From a bacterium (GTDB lineage Bacteria > Cyanobacteriota > Sericytochromatia > S15B-MN24 > UBA4093), in contig JAYKJE010000021.1 of assembly GCA_035285805.1 (NCBI GenBank), forward strand, positions 156,956 to 220,955: a DNA stretch of 64,000 bases. The letters run 5' to 3'. A program made the translations under genes and the position numbers. Each line of letters starts with the position of its first letter. Position 1 is the stretch's first letter. This document shows positions 8,475 through 29,744 of the stretch, piece by piece. The notes under the pieces are model-generated. The model worked only from the letters and a program-made list of their open reading frames with translations. It searched no databases and was not told where the DNA came from.

Positions 8475-9380
8475 TTACGGCAGCTTTCGGATGTCCGTCA
8501 GGCGAGTCCAGGCGACCTCGACCTCGAGGGCGAGTCTCTCGAGTTCGCGGACGCCCCGGAGCCGGGTGCTCGCCCGCTCGAAGAGCCGAAGCCTCGCCCC
8601 GTGCTGGAGTCCGGCGTGCATGAGGGCTTTCAGCGTTGGCTCGCCGAGGCTCGCCCGGACCCCCGCGGGAAGGGTTTCCAGGATGGCTCCTGCTTCTCCC
8701 TCGATCCCCGTCAGTCGCGAGAGCACGCGATCGAGCAATTCGACCGGTGCCGAGGCACGGGCCCTCACCCGCAGGACGTGGTCATAGAAGGCAATCTCGG
8801 GGGCCAGTCGCTTCACGTGCATCGACAGGTCGGGCGTCCGGAGCACGAATCGCGGCTCGCGTCTCCCGCGGACGACATCCTCGATGTGGAAGCATCCGAG
8901 GTCCATCGCCGCCACGAAGTGCCACTTCAGTCCGAATCTGCGGTGCTGGACCAGGAAGGCATGGACATCCGCATCGGAGAGCCAGAGGAGTTGCTCGATG
9001 CGCCTCCGGACGGTGCGCAGGTCGCTCGAGTAAAGCACCGGGTGCGTGTGAAAGGCGCCCAGTTCCGCATGGACGAGGTCGTGGGGGCGGCAGCGATAGC
9101 GGACTCCGATCGTTCCGGTTCCCGGCGCCCGGACGGTCGCGGTCGTGAGGTTCTGGTACTCGAGGATCCGGTCTTCACAACCTCCCATCATCCCGGCCCG
9201 CTCGTCGAAGACCGGCAGCCGACGATGAAGGGATGAGGCGGAGGCAGTCAGGGTGTTGAGCATGCTCAGCCCGAACTCGTCGATGAGCCGGGCATGCATC
9301 GAGGCCGAAACGCGCAAGGGTTCTCCAGGGTGCACGGACGGAGGGGATCCGTTCCAAGGGGTATCCATCCTGGAGATCAC
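8475..9380 (-). CDS. hypothetical cytoplasmic protein (301 aa), first gene upstream of flp and divergent from dam
   Basis: Long ORF with GTG start (or ATG at 9368). No recognisable motifs. Coding-like codon bias. The promoter region is the GATC-rich AT-rich intergenic segment. Confidence 0.5.
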   Translation of the reverse strand: MISRMDTPWNGSPPSVHPGEPLRVSASMHARLIDEFGLSMLNTLTASASSLHRRLPVFDERAGMMGGCEDRILEYQNLTTATVRAPGTGTIGVRYRCRPHDLVHAELGAFHTHPVLYSSDLRTVRRRIEQLLWLSDADVHAFLVQHRRFGLKWHFVAAMDLGCFHIEDVVRGRREPRFVLRTPDLSMHVKRLAPEIAFYDHVLRVRARASAPVELLDRVLSRLTGIEGEAGAILETLPAGVRASLGEPTLKALMHAGLQHGARLRLFERASTRLRGVRELERLALEVEVAWTRLTDIRKLP

Positions 9381-9516
9381 GTGTTATTGTAAACATCGAG
9401 TTACGGAGACATCGATCACAGAGCACATTTGATCTATTGATCACATATTTCTGTCGATCAGCGTGATCAAATGTCTCCAGATGATCGTTGGCACTTACCC
9501 GGAGGACCCCCCGCGC
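9375..9516. promoter_or_regulatory. AT-rich divergent intergenic/promoter region with a dense cluster of seven GATC (Dam) sites
   Basis: GATC at about 9375, 9414, 9431, 9439, 9456, 9465 and 9483, including repeated TGATCA half-palindromes. About 85 bp of under 40% GC inside a roughly 70% GC genome. Lies between the 301-aa gene (start 9380, minus) and dam (start 9517, plus). Confidence 0.6.
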
Positions 9517-24385: not shown

Positions 24386-26053
24386 ATGATTCGGGTGCGT
24401 GATTGGGCGTTGCCGGCCGTGCTGGCGTCGGGAATCCTCGGCGGAGGATTGTGGGTCCACTCCGGGCTCGAGTTGCTGTCGCGCCAGGAGGCGCTGCTGA
24501 CCACCCACCTCGAAAAACTCAGTAAGGCCGCCAATCCGGGGTCGGCCGTTTCCGAGGCTTGGCTGTCCGAGATGCAGGACAGCCGGAAGGCGATCGCCAC
24601 CCACGTGGCCACCACGCGCCAGCAACTGCTGCTCGGCGTCTCGGCCCTGGCCCTGCTTTCCCTCTTTGTCGGCTTCCTCGTCTCCCGGCGGACCCGGCGT
24701 GGGGCCGAGCGGCTGCTCATGGAAGCCGACCGGCTGGTCTCGGGCTCTGGGGCCGATACCCAGGCGTTCTCCCGGGAACTCGGGGGGGTCGGCGACGGAC
24801 TCATCCGGCTGGTCGACCATTTCCACGAGTCTCTGACCGAGGTCGGCCAGGCCGCGCGCATCGTCGCCCAGAACCTCGAGCAGATCGGGGCCGGTACCGA
24901 GGAACTTGCCCAGACCTCCAAGATCCAGGCCTCCACCGCGGCGGACACCACCCGCGCCGTCGAGCAGATGGCTCGCAACGGTGAATTGCTTGCCCGGAAC
25001 GCCTCGGACCTCTCGGCCCAGGTCGAACTGACCTCGACGGCCCTGCAGCAGATCGTCGCGGGGACCTCGTCGGTCGTGTCCAATGCGGACGTCCTGTCAG
25101 GCGTCGTCAACCAGATGGGTGCGGCCATCCAGGAGATGTCCGCCTCGATCGATTTCGTGGCCCAGAACGTTCGCGAGGCGGCGAACGACGCGGTGCAGAC
25201 CTCCGAAGCCGCTCGCGAGGGCCGGGAGGCCGTTGACGCCACCGTGGCGGGCATCCAGGACGTGTTCCAGGTCATGTCTGGGATCCGCGTCGCCATCGAC
25301 CTGCTGGGCCAGCGGTCGAAGCAGATCGGGACCATCCTGGGGGTCATGGAGGACATCGCGGCCCAGACGAACATGCTGGCCCTGAATGCCAGCATCGAGG
25401 CGGCGCGCGCCGGTGAGGCCGGACGCGGTTTCAGCATCGTCGCCGTCGAGGTTCGAAAGATGGCGGACCGGGCAGCGGCATCGACTGCCGAGATCCGTGA
25501 CCTGGTCAAGGCCATCCAGACGGATACCCAGAGTGCGATGCGGATCAGCCACGAGGGCGAACTCGCCATCTCGGCGGGTGCCGACGTCGCGGGCCAGGCG
25601 GGCTACTATCTGGAGACGATCGTCAAGCGGATCGAAGATCTCGCCACCCGCATCTCCGTCATCGACCGGGCGACCCACGAGCATGCGATCGTGGCCCGGG
25701 ACACCCTGAGCGCCACGGAGCGTCTCGACCAGGGCACGCGTCGCATGACCGAATCTGCCCATCAGCAGGACGTGGCCAGCCAGCGGATCGGCAACTCGGC
25801 CGCGGCGATGCGAGATGTCGTGTTGCAGGTGGCATCCAGTTCCCTTGACCAGCAGAACCAGGCCCGCGAGATGGTGACCGTCATCCAGGGGATGAACTTC
25901 TCGGCTCAGGAATCGGCGATCGCCACCGATACGATCGCCCAGTCGGCCGTCATCTTGCAGAACCAGGCCCATCGCCTGCTCGAGGTGCTCCGCAAGTATG
26001 ACCTGCATGACGAACACACGGTCTCGAACTCGCGGTCGCTGGCGCTTCGCTGA
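24386..26053 (+). CDS. methyl-accepting chemotaxis protein (orphan)
   Basis: N-terminal TM and sensor region, HAMP-like segment, and a highly conserved MCP signalling domain ([72 protein letters not shown]). Confidence 0.9.
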
Positions 26054-26073
26054 CGCTGGCCAGCACCAGGTTC

Positions 26074-26113
26074 GAGACGGGGGGGGCCACCACGTGGTGG
26101 CCCTCCCCGTCTC
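26074..26113 (+). terminator. nested palindromic hairpin GAGACGGGGGGGGCCACCACGTGGTGGCCCTCCCCGTCTC after the MCP gene
   Basis: About 18-bp perfect palindrome nested in an outer 9-bp stem, 20 nt after the MCP stop. No U-tract. Confidence 0.45.
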
Positions 26114-26497
26114 GCTTGCGTGACCGCGACGGAACCGCCGGTTCAGAACCCATCGGACATGCGCACGCCATCCTCTTCGCCCCAGTGGGCCCAGAGAGGG
26201 GACCATTCCCCGTCTTCCCAGGGGAGTTCATCGTCCCAGGTTTCACGGGAGCATCCCTCCGAGGGTTCCCAGGGGGACGTGACCGGGACGAGCATGGGGG
26301 TGAAGGAGCGAGAATCCAGATTCATGGGCACCTGCCAGCAGAATGACGGGGGATGAACATGAATCAATTATACATGATATTTTATTATTTCAAAACGATT
26401 TCATAAAAATCAGGCACGAAATGGGGGCTCAAGTGCGGGGTGAGCTTGACGATGTGATCGGTGTCACCGCTTCACTGACTTCGAAAGGAGCCCGACC

Positions 26498-26695
26498 ATG
26501 ACCTGCCTGCACGGCCACCCGTCGAAACTGGCCCCCCGCACCATCGAACTCGAACTGCCACATCCGCGCGGACTCGCTCGGTTCGAAGGGGTTCCTGCTC
26601 TCGTCTGTCCGGCGTGCGGCTTCGTGGCCATCGAGCGCGCCACGTCACGTGCCATCGATGGCTGGATGGAAAGGCTGGGGCGGGAGGCTGCCTGA
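26498..26695 (+). CDS. YgiT-type zinc-finger protein (MqsA-N-terminal-like, antitoxin-type), 65 aa
   Basis: FEGVPALVCPACGF matches the YgiT-type zinc-finger consensus (..EGVPALVCxxCGE..). N-terminal C-x-H-x-H pair. AAGGAG ribosome-binding site 8 nt upstream. Sits in an AT-rich islet. Confidence 0.6.
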   Translation: MTCLHGHPSKLAPRTIELELPHPRGLARFEGVPALVCPACGFVAIERATSRAIDGWMERLGREAA

Positions 26696-27009
26696 GGAGG
26701 CGTCAGCGAGCCGTCGCGAGGTCGGGTGCGACCCAGATCTCGTGGATCTGACGCTCGATCGACTCGCGGTCGGGGCCAGTGAGGCCTGGACCCGCAGAGT
26801 CCAGACGCTGACCGGACCAGCTGTCCGCGGTCTCGCGCTGCACCATCAGAACAATCACTTCGCGGTCGCGCACGTTCGCCTCCTGCATGGGATCCCGTTA
26901 CGGGATCAATACGTTGTCTATACCACGGATGTCTCTTTTTCGAACGGGATGGCTGGATTCCGGAACCCTGACGGCCTGAAACGTCACGTTCATCCCCTAT
27001 GATGGGGGC

Positions 27010-28752
27010 ATGCATGTCATGGACAGCCTGATGGTGGCCGCCACCATCCACGAGCTACGCCACATGGTCGTCGGGTCTCGCATCGACCGGATCCATCTCC
27101 CCACGGCCTGGGAGATGGTGTGGATCCTCCGCGGCCCGGGAGGGCCGCGTCGCCTCCTGTTCTCGGCCCGGGGCGTGCATGCGCGCCTCCATCTCACGGA
27201 GCGTCGCTTCGAGAATCCGGCTCAGCCCCCGGCTTTCTGCATGCTGCTGCGCAAGCATCTCGAGGGGGCTCGCATCCTCCGGATCGAGCAACCCGGTCTC
27301 GAGCGGGTCGTCCAGATCGTCTGTACCGGTCGGGACGAACTCGGGGACCCCACGGAACGCGCGCTGGTGGCCGAGATCACCGGCAAGCATGCCAACTGGC
27401 TGCTGCTCGATCGGCCCTGGGGAAACATCCTGGGCCTCCTCCGTCCCGTCAGCGAACGCGAGAGCCGGGAGCGCCAGTTGCTTCCCGGTCTCCCCTACGA
27501 TCCTCCCCCAGTTCCGGCTGATCGTCTCGATCCGGGAGCGTTCGATCCCTTTTCCCTGCCCGTGGGGCCCGGAGCGACAGAACGCCCTGTCCGGGAGGTC
27601 CTTCTGGCACGGGTGCACTCTCTCTCGCGGGCCGCGCTCGGGGAACTGCTCGCAGCGGCCGGGATCGACCCGACGCTCCCGGCATGCCAGCTCGAAGTGA
27701 CGGCGCGTTCGCGCCTGGCCGAGGTCTGGGAGACTTTCCGGAAGGAACTGGCAGAGGGGGACTTCCGGCTCACGCGAACCGCCGAGGGTTTCGAGGTGCT
27801 GCGGCTGGGCCGTCCGGGGGATTCACTGCCGCCGGGGGAGACCCTGGATGCCTGGTTCGGTGCTCGCTGGGACCGGGAGGCCATCGAGCGCCAGCGCCAG
27901 CACCTGCAGCGCGAGGTTCGGGAGCGGTTCGACCGGCTCGATTCCCGACGTCATGCTCTTGAAGGGGCGCTCGAGCGCGTCGATACGGCTACCGACTGGA
28001 AACTCTGGGGAGATCTGCTCCTCACCTTCGCCCACGAAGTGCCACGCGGTGTCTCGAGTCATGCGCTTCCGGACATCCAGAGCGACGACTCCCGGCTCGT
28101 CACCATCCCTCTCGACCCCACGCTGGATGCCACCCAGAACGCCCAGCGCCACTACCGGCGCTATCAGAAGGCGCGCTCGGGCGAGCAGGTCACGCGCGAC
28201 CTGCTCGCAGCCGCCTCGGTAGAGCGGGCTTACTGGGAGGGGGTCGCCATCGCGGTCGAGCGTGCCACCGACCTCGAAACCCTCGCGGAAATCTCTCATG
28301 AGGTCCGGCCACCCGTGTCCCTGCCGGGGCGCCAGCGAACCCGTTCACCCGAGCCTCGGCCGCTTCAACTCGTGTCCCGGGATGGTTTCACCGTCTGGCT
28401 CGGCCGCAACAATCGCCAGAACGACTGGTTGACCTTCAAGCTTGCCCGTCCCGAGGACTGGTGGTTCCATGCGCGCAACATTCCGGGCTCGCACGTCCTC
28501 GTGCGCGCTGAAGGCCAGGGCGAGCTTCCGGAGCGCACCCTGCTGGATGCAGCCATGCTCGCTGCTGGATTCAGCCAGGCTCGCCTGTCGAGCGGCGTCC
28601 CCGTCGTCTACACGCGTCGGAAGCACGTCTGGAAACCCTCGGGGGCGCTACCGGGCTTCGTTCATTACGAGCGGGAGCGTACGGTCCACGTGACGCCCGA
28701 CGCCGATCCTGTGGCCCTGTTTCAGGTCGGGGCCAGCGCATCCAGGGAGTAG
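27010..28752 (+). CDS. rqcH: Rqc2/RqcH homologue (NFACT family, fibronectin-binding protein A-like) ribosome quality-control protein
   Basis: NFACT-N region (..LRKHLEGARI..) and C-terminal NFACT-R/DUF814 (GFTVWLGRNNRQNDWLTFKLARPEDWWFHARNIPGSHVLV). Confidence 0.85.
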   Translation: MHVMDSLMVAATIHELRHMVVGSRIDRIHLPTAWEMVWILRGPGGPRRLLFSARGVHARLHLTERRFENPAQPPAFCMLLRKHLEGARILRIEQPGLERVVQIVCTGRDELGDPTERALVAEITGKHANWLLLDRPWGNILGLLRPVSERESRERQLLPGLPYDPPPVPADRLDPGAFDPFSLPVGPGATERPVREVLLARVHSLSRAALGELLAAAGIDPTLPACQLEVTARSRLAEVWETFRKELAEGDFRLTRTAEGFEVLRLGRPGDSLPPGETLDAWFGARWDREAIERQRQHLQREVRERFDRLDSRRHALEGALERVDTATDWKLWGDLLLTFAHEVPRGVSSHALPDIQSDDSRLVTIPLDPTLDATQNAQRHYRRYQKARSGEQVTRDLLAAASVERAYWEGVAIAVERATDLETLAEISHEVRPPVSLPGRQRTRSPEPRPLQLVSRDGFTVWLGRNNRQNDWLTFKLARPEDWWFHARNIPGSHVLVRAEGQGELPERTLLDAAMLAAGFSQARLSSGVPVVYTRRKHVWKPSGALPGFVHYERERTVHVTPDADPVALFQVGASASRE

Positions 28753-29744
28753 CGCGACCGCGCGGCCAGGTCCGGGGTGGCCACGCGGCCCACGCGGAGC
28801 AGCTCGGTCCCCAGTCCCGCGATCATGGCGGCATTGTCGGTGCATAGCTCCATCGGAGGGGCGACGAACGTCCATCCCCGCTTCTCGGCCACCGTGGCCA
28901 GCCGCGCCCGGAGTTCCCGGTTGGCGGCCACACCTCCCGCGACGGCCAGGACCTCGAGGCCTTCCTGTTCCGCCAGTTTCTCCATCCGGTGCGCGAGGAC
29001 GTCCACGATGGCGCGCTGGAAACTGGCCGCCACGTCTGCCACCGGGATGGGCATCCCTGCCTCGACGTGACGCTCGGCCAGGCGCCGGACGGCGGTCTTG
29101 AGGCCCGAAAACGACATGTCGAGCCCCTCGGACATGCTGGCCCGCGGAAAGGCGAACGCATTCGGATTGCCCTCGGCGGCCAGTCGGTCGATGGCGGGTC
29201 CACCCGGGTAGCCGAGGCCGAGCAGACGTGCCGTCTTGTCATAGGCCTCGCCCACGGCATCGTCGCGGGTCCGGGCCAGACTCCGGAAGTGCTCGGGGCC
29301 GTCCACCCGAACGACCTCGGTGTGCCCGCCCGAAACCAGGAGGCACAGGAACGGCAGGGGCAGATCATGATGGGCCATCCGGTTGGCCCAGATGTGGGCC
29401 GCCAGGTGATGCACCCCCACCAGAGGCACGTCGAGGCCCCAGGCCAGCCCCTTGGCGGTCATCAGACCGACGAGGAGTGCACCTTGCAGGCCTGGGGCGA
29501 AGGTCGTGGCGATTGCATCCAGGTCTTGCAGGCGACAGTCTGCGCGGTCGAGGGCTTCCACCAGCAGCGGACCGATGGCCTCGATGTGGCCGCGAGAGGC
29601 GATCTCGGGCACGACGCCGCCGAACCGTTCATGCAGACCGATCTGGGAGGAGACGACATTCGAGAGGATCTTCCGCCCGTCCTCGACGATCGCGAGCGAG
29701 GTCTCGTCGCACGAGGATTCGATCCCGAGCACGCGTACCGGCAT
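28722..29744 (-). CDS. tsaD: tRNA N6-adenosine threonylcarbamoyltransferase
   Basis: Kae1/TsaD signatures (LGIESSCDETS..., HIEAIG, ..GGVAAN..). Confidence 0.9.
   Translation of the reverse strand: MPVRVLGIESSCDETSLAIVEDGRKILSNVVSSQIGLHERFGGVVPEIASRGHIEAIGPLLVEALDRADCRLQDLDAIATTFAPGLQGALLVGLMTAKGLAWGLDVPLVGVHHLAAHIWANRMAHHDLPLPFLCLLVSGGHTEVVRVDGPEHFRSLARTRDDAVGEAYDKTARLLGLGYPGGPAIDRLAAEGNPNAFAFPRASMSEGLDMSFSGLKTAVRRLAERHVEAGMPIPVADVAASFQRAIVDVLAHRMEKLAEQEGLEVLAVAGGVAANRELRARLATVAEKRGWTFVAPPMELCTDNAAMIAGLGTELLRVGRVATPDLAARSRYSLDALAPT

Follow-up and report, generated by a model that had tools for sequence, protein, structure and literature searches.

The question raised by this locus is whether a small gene for a YgiT/MqsA-type zinc finger, preceded by an AT-rich islet, belongs to a toxin-antitoxin (TA) module brought in by horizontal transfer, as a sequence-only reading had suggested, or has another history. 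The locus lies in a 64-kb stretch of DNA (the window, 67% GC) that was analysed as a whole. The favoured reading, to which we give a probability of roughly 58%, is that the 65-aa gene codes for a small zinc-ribbon protein, inherited vertically, restricted to one clade and devoid of a helix-turn-helix (HTH) domain, and that the gene belongs to a set of three small orphans found together at this position.

The order of genes is MCP, 60-aa gene, AT-rich islet, zinc-finger gene, 56-aa gene and NFACT/RqcH. This organization is identical in six diverged lineages (L002, L003/L011, L004, L005, L006-L009 and L013) whose synonymous divergence reaches ~1.5, two of the six being named Candidatus Sericytochromatia MAGs. 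Scanning 185,579 species genomes yielded just two further loci. Every locus detected occupies the same slot between the MCP and NFACT genes within one clade, and all three small genes are present together in every lineage seen. They hold a fixed position between the chemoreceptor and NFACT/RqcH genes in one Candidatus Sericytochromatia group. Note that synteny cannot separate functional linkage from simple inheritance here, because the loci all come from one narrow clade; a metagenome scan with the NFACT N-terminus, aimed at sister lineages that have or lack the block, gave one identical contig only. The zinc-finger gene is on the + strand; the 60-aa gene, divergent from it, and the 56-aa gene, convergent with it, are on the - strand, and each of the three has its own Shine-Dalgarno sequence. 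Their coding sequences are at native GC (ORF GC by codon position 0.71/0.58/0.73), with GC3 values of 0.72-0.79 compared to 0.79-0.86 in the large neighbours. The genes around the locus are housekeeping genes and mobile-element genes are absent.

The zinc-finger gene (26498..26695, + strand) codes for a 65-aa protein that includes FEGVPALVCPACGF and is predicted to be a stand-alone zinc ribbon of the YgiT/MqsA N-terminal fold. Its ATG at 26498 is preceded at 7 nt by the Shine-Dalgarno sequence AAGGAG (26485..26490, + strand), whose AGGAG core is invariant in all lineages. This ORF, its ribosome-binding site, the AT-rich islet and a palindrome between them are all located where the sequence-only reading had placed them. 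The attribution to YgiT/MqsA-type fingers, made in the same reading, is borne out by profile and fold searches. TIGR03831 gives 19.1 bits for the window protein, under the curated cutoff of 20.2 because its first CxxC has degenerated, and 23.0, 21.1, 20.8 and 21.3 bits for the orthologues P0002, P0003, L004 and L005, respectively. Models of MqsA-family antitoxins score lower relative to their own cutoffs (TIGR03830, at most 16.9 bits for a cutoff of 61.8; PF15731, at most 13.9 bits for a cutoff of 30). The fold search with the AlphaFold model (mean pLDDT 85) returned MqsA as the top PDB matches. Like the N-terminal domain of E. coli MqsA (YgiT; PDB 3gn5, 3hi2), the model features two beta-hairpin knuckles and then a helix, after which the chain ends (single C-terminal helix, residues 47-64). 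An ungapped alignment places residues 3, 6, 37 and 40 opposite the four cysteines that E. coli MqsA has at the same positions, although sequence identity is only 16-19% and the window copy carries a Gly at position 6. In contrast to E. coli MqsA, there is no C-terminal HTH-XRE domain: the modelled protein shows the MqsA-N fold without any DNA-binding domain, and for this reason would not bind DNA in the manner of MqsA. The zinc-finger profile searched against PDB sequences gave insignificant rubredoxin-knuckle matches only and did not recover MqsA. A rubredoxin identity was rejected, as the similarity is confined to the knuckle FE(G/D)VPA..VCP.CG (E 0.11-0.8) and the fold search favours MqsA.

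The family to which this protein belongs is small. An exhaustive HMM search, covering 1.84 billion representatives, retrieved six proteins at E < 1e-3, and the subfamily makes up one 50%-identity cluster only in that collection. Three distant matches (P0005, P0006 and P0008) are bona fide YgiT fingers, scoring 30-62 bits on TIGR03831; P0005, which is a stand-alone finger, is likewise found without a toxin-like neighbour. The protein shares with the stand-alone fingers of TIGR03831 its small size and a mostly two-knuckle finger, but it represents a very divergent, tiny subfamily marked by a His conserved inside its first knuckle, C-x-H-C, and by a TIELELPHP strand peculiar to the family. Its finger has weak similarity to YokU-like putative antitoxins (14-22 bits with PF14122/TIGR03829, whose cutoffs are 27 and 90.85), and the lysine-aminomutase (ablA) neighbourhood of the latter is not seen here. 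A literature search on stand-alone YgiT-type fingers and ZifS returned nothing usable. The gene is under strong constraint, with dN/dS of 0.05 (vs L002) and 0.13 (vs L003), compared to 0.08 and 0.10, respectively, for the adjacent NFACT N-terminus, and 33 of its 43 differences to L002 fall at third codon positions. The sequence-only reading had allowed that the protein could be a widely conserved stand-alone gene at native GC: in the relatives it does stand alone at native GC, but its conservation is that of one small clade.

MqsA binds its toxin through its N-terminal domain. The 65-aa protein would correspond to this partner-binding domain plus a single C-terminal helix, and such an architecture could derive from an ancient MqsRA-type module that lost its toxin and HTH before the clade split, its finger being recruited elsewhere. 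The MqsA fold, the coincidence of positions 3, 6, 37 and 40 with MqsA cysteine positions and the lack of both HTH and toxin are compatible with a domesticated remnant of this type, whose strong constraint shows that the gene is in use. We consider this origin unlikely, given the low identity to MqsA, the failure of the PDB sequence search to find it and the absence of toxin pseudogene traces in the six-frame Pfam scan. YgiT-type fingers also exist independently, stand-alone or in other architectures (P0005, P0006, P0008), so that descent from a full MqsRA module need not be assumed.

The organization of the locus leads us to reject a canonical type II TA pair. It has neither the co-directional operon nor the patchy, mobile distribution of type II systems, and the features of an MqsA antitoxin, namely a C-terminal HTH of XRE type and an adjacent, co-transcribed gene for an MqsR-type (RelE-fold) toxin, are missing; there is no mqsR-like gene here, in contrast to E. 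coli MqsA. The view that no convincing toxin partner adjoins the zinc-finger gene proved right: a six-frame Pfam scan of 26050-27012 (E <= 1) found nothing, toxin remnants included, and the family libraries were blank, PADLOC and PHROGs yielding no informative match for any of the three small proteins. The proposal of a degraded TA module fails on the integrity of the three small genes, which are intact, under purifying selection and not organized as an operon. A YgiT/MqsA-type finger alone does not imply an antitoxin. Our analysis suggests that this domain may also act as a stand-alone protein-binding module, kept under strong selection in toxin-free surroundings. By analogy with MqsA-N, the zinc-finger protein would bind another protein through its beta-sheet, the obvious partner candidates being the products of the two co-conserved neighbouring genes.

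The first of these neighbours is an acidic Trp/Glu-rich orphan gene (26143..26325, - strand) that starts at the ATG at 26325 and is divergent from the zinc-finger gene. The second is a 56-aa orphan gene (26703..26873, - strand) with a GTG start at 26873, convergent with the zinc-finger gene. Both ORFs had been noted in the sequence-only reading; they exist, but with shorter starts, coding for 60 aa rather than 74 and for 56 aa rather than 61. Gene callers give 60 aa for the former in three assemblies, and the 74-aa version with a TTG start is probably too long, since the TATAAT at 26367..26372 abuts this TTG (26367-26365). The 60-aa gene has a dN/dS of 0.20, third codon positions accounting for 27 of its 51 differences, and the carboxyl-terminal half of its product, ELPWEDGEWSPLWAxW...GVRMSDxF, is near-invariant. 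The 56-aa gene, preceded at 5 nt from its GTG by GGAGG (reverse complement of 26879-26883), has the same length in all lineages with zero indels, and a dN/dS of 0.31-0.37. The AlphaFold model of its product (mean pLDDT 81) shows three strands and then a helix, with a weak likeness to HicB-N and dsRBD, folds that HicAB systems employ. Homologues of both proteins are found in the same clade only. Neither has a family match in Pfam, NCBIfam, PADLOC or PHROGs, and their profiles have no match among PDB sequences. The stop codons of the 56-aa and zinc-finger genes are 7 nt apart in the window and 7-11 nt apart across lineages; with this spacing and no terminator in between, the two transcripts would be expected to overlap.

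These neighbours also figure in a further possibility, a new non-canonical, TA-like or three-component module in which the HTH-less finger would neutralise or sequester one of the two neighbouring products, the 56-aa beta3-alpha protein or the 60-aa protein, which is acidic and Trp-rich. Expression would depend on the overlap of the convergent transcripts and on a signal of CRP/FNR type, cyclic nucleotide or redox, that acts through the palindrome. If real, this module would be related to TA systems but fixed in the chromosome of Sericytochromatia and controlled by a signal. The fold match to the toxin-binding domain of MqsA, the co-conservation of the three genes in all lineages seen, the expected overlap of the two convergent transcripts, the orphan status of both neighbours, which have no assigned function, and the weak HicB-N/dsRBD likeness of the 56-aa model all go in this direction. 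They are opposed by the arrangement of the genes, neither co-directional nor operonic and with separate start signals, by a distribution that is strictly syntenic and vertical instead of mobile or patchy, by the absence of any toxin family in every frame and library searched, and by a purifying selection that is stronger on the zinc-finger gene than on either putative partner. We consider such a module quite unlikely. Should the neighbours nevertheless prove to be partners of the zinc-finger protein, the locus would offer a compact case of the toxin-binding domain of MqsA put to use away from classical TA systems, in an uncultured sister group of cyanobacteria that has been little studied.

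The palindrome TGTGATCGGTGTCACC (26453..26468, no strand) has the form TGTGA-N6-TCAC(C) and is similar to operators of the CRP/FNR type. Its core GTGATCGGTGTCAC occupies 26455-26468, two additional bases completing the motif, and 37.5 nt separate its centre from the zinc-finger ATG downstream. It is the best-conserved intergenic block, 15 of its 19 columns being invariant, whereas the rest of the intergenic region has 23 of 86. The longest invariant intergenic runs are CGATGTGAT and TCACC, shared by 5-6 lineages, and the spacer is variable. The operator of MqsA is of the type ACCT...AGGT, from which the TGTGA-N6-TCAC found here differs. The palindrome agrees with CRP/FNR operators at 9 of 10 consensus positions, and three lineages add an inner T/A (GTGAT-N4-ATCAC). 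TGTGAN6TCACA is the CRP consensus both in E. coli and in cyanobacteria (Synechocystis SyCRP1) (PMC2633013). CRP-activated cyanobacterial promoters carry a TAN3T box ~22 bp downstream of the site (PMC2633013), which the palindrome does not have. The distance between the palindrome and the recognisable -10 boxes of either gene corresponds to no standard class II spacing. There is one such site in the 64 kb, where TGTGA-N6-TCAC has 1 match for 0.4 expected, a count that is statistically unremarkable alone. The conservation of the element and its agreement with the CRP/FNR-type consensus are clear from the alignment, and its assignment as a putative CRP/FNR site follows from this consensus match. 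No CRP homologue was found in the 64-kb window by tblastn with E. coli CRP; two weak matches, in an ABC1-kinase gene and in a ParA/BcsQ-like gene, are not CRP-like. The protein that recognises the palindrome would be a distinct dimer of the CRP/FNR family, with its gene at another genomic location, rather than the zinc-finger protein.

Alternatively, the palindrome could function at the RNA level instead of as a DNA operator, forming a hairpin within the 5' UTR of the zinc-finger transcript that controls translation or stability. Its location 30-45 nt upstream of the ATG means that it could be transcribed if the promoter is within the AT-rich islet, and the sole arm difference among lineages (A to G) retains a U.G wobble pair. 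The stem has 5 bp only, however, and shows no compensatory double changes among the lineages compared, while the invariance of CGATGTGAT extends beyond it, as base-specific protein contacts would give. An Rfam scan of 25900-27200 at E <= 1 gave sub-threshold chance matches only, and this RNA-based function appears very unlikely.

The AT-rich islet (26328..26439, no strand) lies between the divergent 60-aa and zinc-finger genes and would be the control region for both. GC content in 60-bp windows is below 40% over its length, with a minimum of 18%, and this is the most extreme GC drop in the 64 kb, where one other stretch falls under 40%, reaching 37%. In the six lineages the islet is found at -137 to -145 from the zinc-finger ATG with 18-25% GC, and their alignment identifies the conserved blocks ATTATAC and ATTTTAAAA. 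A consensus TATAAT (26367..26372, - strand), read from the sequence as a putative -10 box, is the candidate promoter element of the 60-aa gene; ATTATA is kept in five of the six lineages. Recognisable -10-like promoter elements are found for two of the three small genes (60-aa and 56-aa), and a sigma-70 promoter scan gave no convincing promoter for the zinc-finger gene itself. The TTGACG at 26446-26451 was rejected as a promoter part, as it is unconserved and has no matching -10 box. A 52-aa ORF spanning the islet (26343-26501) was likewise dismissed as non-coding (GC3 0.40). The comparison among lineages indicates that the islet is an ancestral region from which both the 60-aa and the zinc-finger genes are predicted to be transcribed divergently, and its foreign origin is rejected; the sharp local GC drop would mark a conserved promoter/operator region, not foreign DNA. 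The sequence-only reading had envisaged a conserved promoter of a longer gene as an alternative to its own proposal: the predicted promoter region is indeed conserved, but it belongs to small genes. The proposal itself, a recently acquired foreign islet with a degraded TA module, could draw on the fall of local GC to 18%, on a GC3 of the small genes somewhat under that of their large neighbours and on the lineage-restricted families, but is extremely improbable, since the low-GC part is ~110 bp of intergenic DNA only, its position is kept in six syntenic lineages across a synonymous divergence of up to ~1.5, no integrase, transposase, tRNA or flanking-repeat signals were seen at the locus amid its housekeeping neighbours, and all ORFs are intact and under selection.

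Two further elements are associated with the 56-aa gene. The putative extended -10-like element TGGTATAGA (26917..26925, - strand), recognised by its consensus, is a candidate promoter of this gene. Five lineages cover this element and all have kept CGTGGTA, four of them with CGTGGTAT, and a conserved TTCGAA is found 16 nt upstream of the CGTGGTA element. The hairpin GATCCCG-TTA-CGGGATC (26891..26907, no strand) lies in the probable 5' UTR of the gene and folds with -12.6 kcal/mol, compared to -5.6 +/- 2.2 kcal/mol for shuffled sequences. The corresponding region is within about half a standard deviation of the shuffle means in L004, L013 and L011, and 1.2-1.9 standard deviations below them in L002 and L005. 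The hairpin reported from the sequence alone is real in the window but inconsistently conserved among relatives. On the other side of the locus, a G+C-rich inverted repeat (26073..26114) separates the MCP gene (+ strand) from the 60-aa gene (- strand). Its 21-bp arms, 95% complementary and 0 nt apart in a repeat search, make it look like a bidirectional terminator, albeit one without a T-run that the terminator scan did not call.

The zinc-finger protein of the window differs from that of most relatives in its first knuckle. The second knuckle, C37-P-A-C40-G, is intact. The first is degenerate, reading C3-L-H-G6(-H7) in the window, L001 and L006-L009, so that the pair of CxxC(G) motifs is incomplete in these copies; all other lineages have C3-x-H-C6, and the family as such is a two-knuckle one. 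The window copy has lost one predicted zinc-binding cysteine (C6G), which makes zinc binding in this genome uncertain. His5 or His7 might replace Cys6 as a ligand. Strains with an R14C change also occur, in which C14 is present beside G6. Together with the natural C6G variant, they provide a small test of how far the ligands of a zinc ribbon can change.

The zinc-finger gene (26498–26695, +; 65 aa) lies in a locus whose gene order is common to every sufficiently long homologous locus: the methyl-accepting chemotaxis protein gene (MCP; 24386–26053, +), a 60-aa gene (26143–26325, −), an AT-rich islet (26328–26439), the zinc-finger gene, a 56-aa gene (26703–26873, −) and NFACT/RqcH (27010–28752, +), the last being followed by tsaD (28722–29744, −). 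Orthologous loci were collected through exact-protein look-ups and pattern scans (L002, L003/L011/L012, L004, L005, L006–L009 and L013), two of them being named Candidatus Sericytochromatia MAGs. The best reading, to which we give a probability of about 0.58, is that of a vertically inherited, clade-restricted MqsA-N-type zinc ribbon without HTH that would act through binding to a protein partner. An ancestral divergent control region, rich in AT and carrying a CRP/FNR-type operator, would drive its gene; the operator would serve a regulator encoded elsewhere.

The small genes were analyzed by dN/dS and codon position, with the NFACT N-terminus as comparison (dN/dS = 0.08 and 0.10). Values are 0.05 and 0.13 for the zinc-finger gene (third-position differences 33/43 and 35/58), 0.20 for the 60-aa gene, and 0.31 and 0.37 for the 56-aa gene, which is free of indels in every lineage. 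Alternative frames of the same DNA mostly give 0.9–4, with the exception of the opposite-strand frame sharing the wobble position (0.41–0.47). By this contrast all three ORFs are real genes, with the strongest constraint on the zinc-finger gene. NCBI entries for the window's own proteins are VKP72_05645 and VKP72_05650. The sequence-only reading had correctly placed the palindrome, the AAGGAG ribosome-binding site of the zinc-finger gene (26485–26490), the 65-aa ORF, the ORF ends at 26703 and 26143, and a hairpin at 26891–26907. Both flanking ORFs that it listed exist, but its 74-aa version of the minus-strand gene, starting at a TTG, gives way to the 60-aa form, whose ATG at 26325 is called in three assemblies. 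The 56-aa gene starts at a conserved GTG (26873), which a GGAGG precedes by 5 nt. The product of the 60-aa gene is rich in Trp and very acidic, has a nearly invariant carboxyl-terminal half (ELPWEDGEWSPLWAxW...GVRMSDxF), and its relatives were detected only inside the clade.

The identification of a YgiT/MqsA-type finger is borne out by the orthologs, four of which score 20.8–23.0 bits on TIGR03831 (YgiT_finger; cutoff 20.2). The window protein reaches 19.1 bits on this model; its Pfam YokU score, 14.2 bits, is likewise under the cutoff (27). Its sub-cutoff TIGR03831 score results from the first knuckle, which is C-L-H-G-H versus C-(L/M)-H-C in other lineages. Family positions 3, 6, 37 and 40 align without gaps with the cysteines at the same positions of MqsA (sequence checked against PDB), which are the MqsA zinc ligands. 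The predicted structure of the protein shows the MqsA-N fold. A PDB sequence-only search did not recover MqsA and returned only insignificant rubredoxin-knuckle matches. The family is rare: a word-indexed search gave three clusters among 5.8 billion proteins, and 1.84 billion representatives searched exhaustively by HMM gave six proteins at E < 1e-3; the distant HMM matches P0005, P0006 and P0008 are clear YgiT fingers (30–62 bits). The zinc-finger protein is a divergent, stand-alone MqsA-N/YgiT-type zinc ribbon. Neither its fold nor its domain family is new, and databases already annotate YgiT-type fingers that stand alone; the novelty lies in a very small and divergent Sericytochromatia subfamily with two co-conserved orphan neighbors and a natural loss of a zinc cysteine. 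Note that this loss (C6G, CLHGH) removes the second zinc-ligand cysteine in the window's lineage. An assembly error at Gly6 is excluded because the same Gly is found in the homologous locus L001 as well as in four contigs from other samples. In the latter, which are near-identical (L006:8227–8424, L007:8227–8424, L008:872–1069, L009:2989–3186), G6 is joined by R14C (APCTIE for APRTIE), which may be either a new cysteine that compensates for the loss or a neutral polymorphism.

The HTH is absent, the protein stopping at residue 65 and full-length MqsA models scoring far under their cutoffs. Descent from an old MqsRA module, as its domesticated remnant, overlaps the preferred reading in present-day function; it is the least improbable of the alternatives, though still unlikely. 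No Pfam family was matched at E ≤ 1 in the six frames of 26050–27012, and the 60-aa and 56-aa proteins have no match in Pfam, NCBIfam, PADLOC, PHROGs or PDB sequences, in agreement with the earlier remark that no convincing partner is present. Alignment-based profile searches with the flanking proteins returned only same-clade orthologs. Both flanking genes are opposite in strand to the zinc-finger gene, and therefore form no operon with it. The proposed degraded toxin–antitoxin module is not supported, the three genes being real by dN/dS and not arranged as an operon; a novel non-canonical module pairing the zinc-finger protein with one neighbor is slightly less probable than the remnant. Likewise, the distant stand-alone finger P0005 has no toxin-like neighbor, and P0006 and P0008 show the finger in tandem arrangement and in fusion with other regions; the finger is therefore an unreliable marker of antitoxins.

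The palindrome GTGATCGGTGTCAC (26455–26468), extended by two bases to TGTGA-TCGGTG-TCAC-C, corresponds by sequence match to the CRP/FNR-type consensus TGTGAN6TCACA, cyanobacterial CRPs included (PMC2633013). Three lineages have the form GTGAT-N4-ATCAC. In a comparison of five lineages, the two longest invariant intergenic runs are CGATGTGAT and TCACC, separated by a variable spacer, and 15/19 columns of the palindrome block are invariant versus 23/86 elsewhere in the intergenic region; both runs stay invariant once a sixth lineage is added. The window has no second match of this kind (chance expectation 0.4), so the weight of the site lies in its conservation and not in enrichment. A search of the 64-kb window gave no CRP-like gene, and no standard −10 box was found at class II spacing from the palindrome. 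MqsA-style autoregulation is unsupported, since a DNA-binding domain is lacking from the zinc-finger protein. An RNA hairpin (5 bp) in place of a DNA operator would concern the regulatory element only and is compatible with the other readings, but compensatory changes are absent and invariance runs past the stem, which makes it rather improbable.

With window GC at 67%, 60-base windows fall below 40% in just two places. The islet is the lowest, at 18%; the other (9379–9489) is far milder and goes no lower than 37%. Across six diverged lineages, the 60-mer of lowest GC 5′ of the zinc-finger ATG starts at −137 to −145 and has 18–25% GC versus a locus background of 63–67%. Conserved blocks include ATTATAC and ATTTTAAAA. 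The minus-strand TATAAT at 26367–26372 (ATTATA on the plus strand) is a consensus −10 box kept in 5/6 lineages, and is a putative −10 positioned to drive the 60-aa gene; it abuts the 74-aa TTG start, which also speaks for the 60-aa start. Composition is native in the coding regions: the zinc-finger gene has a GC of 0.71/0.58/0.73 by codon position, and GC3 is 0.72–0.79 in the three small genes versus 0.79–0.86 in their large neighbors. The wider neighborhood holds housekeeping genes and no mobile-element genes. By these comparisons the islet is not foreign DNA, against the earlier proposal, and its preserved place and GC in six lineages make recent horizontal acquisition highly improbable.

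The 5′ flank of the 56-aa gene has, on its own strand, a conserved CGTGGTA(T) element, an extended −10-like TGGTATAGA (reverse complement of 26917–26925); 16 nt upstream of this element, TTCGAA is conserved too. The hairpin at 26891–26907 would lie in the 5′ UTR of this gene. It folds at −12.6 kcal/mol in the window versus −5.6 ± 2.2 for shuffles; in 3/5 other lineages the region is no better than shuffles, and in L002 and L005 it is better than their shuffles by 1.2–1.9 sd. The stop codons of the zinc-finger (+) and 56-aa (−) genes are 7 nt apart in the window (26693–26705), against 10–11 nt in relatives. The stretch between them gave no terminator-like site, and the two transcripts therefore probably overlap at their 3′ ends, as expected from this arrangement; such overlap, if true, would permit antisense interference. 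A G+C-rich inverted repeat (26073–26114; near-perfect, loop-free 21-bp arms, 95% complementary) separates the MCP gene from the 60-aa gene, which is convergent with it. The repeat resembles a bidirectional terminator, though without a T-run, and is recognizable only in part in L002. In the region 26976–27022, a conserved −10-like TATGAT/TATCAT box (26998–27003), inside CCCCTATGATGGGG, stands only 6 nt upstream of the first NFACT/RqcH ATG, and the mRNA of this gene may have no leader or almost none; in other assemblies the gene as called is 7 codons shorter (573 aa). The convergent 3′ ends of NFACT (+) and tsaD (−) overlap by 31 nt (28722–28752), as they do in L001, L006 and L007.
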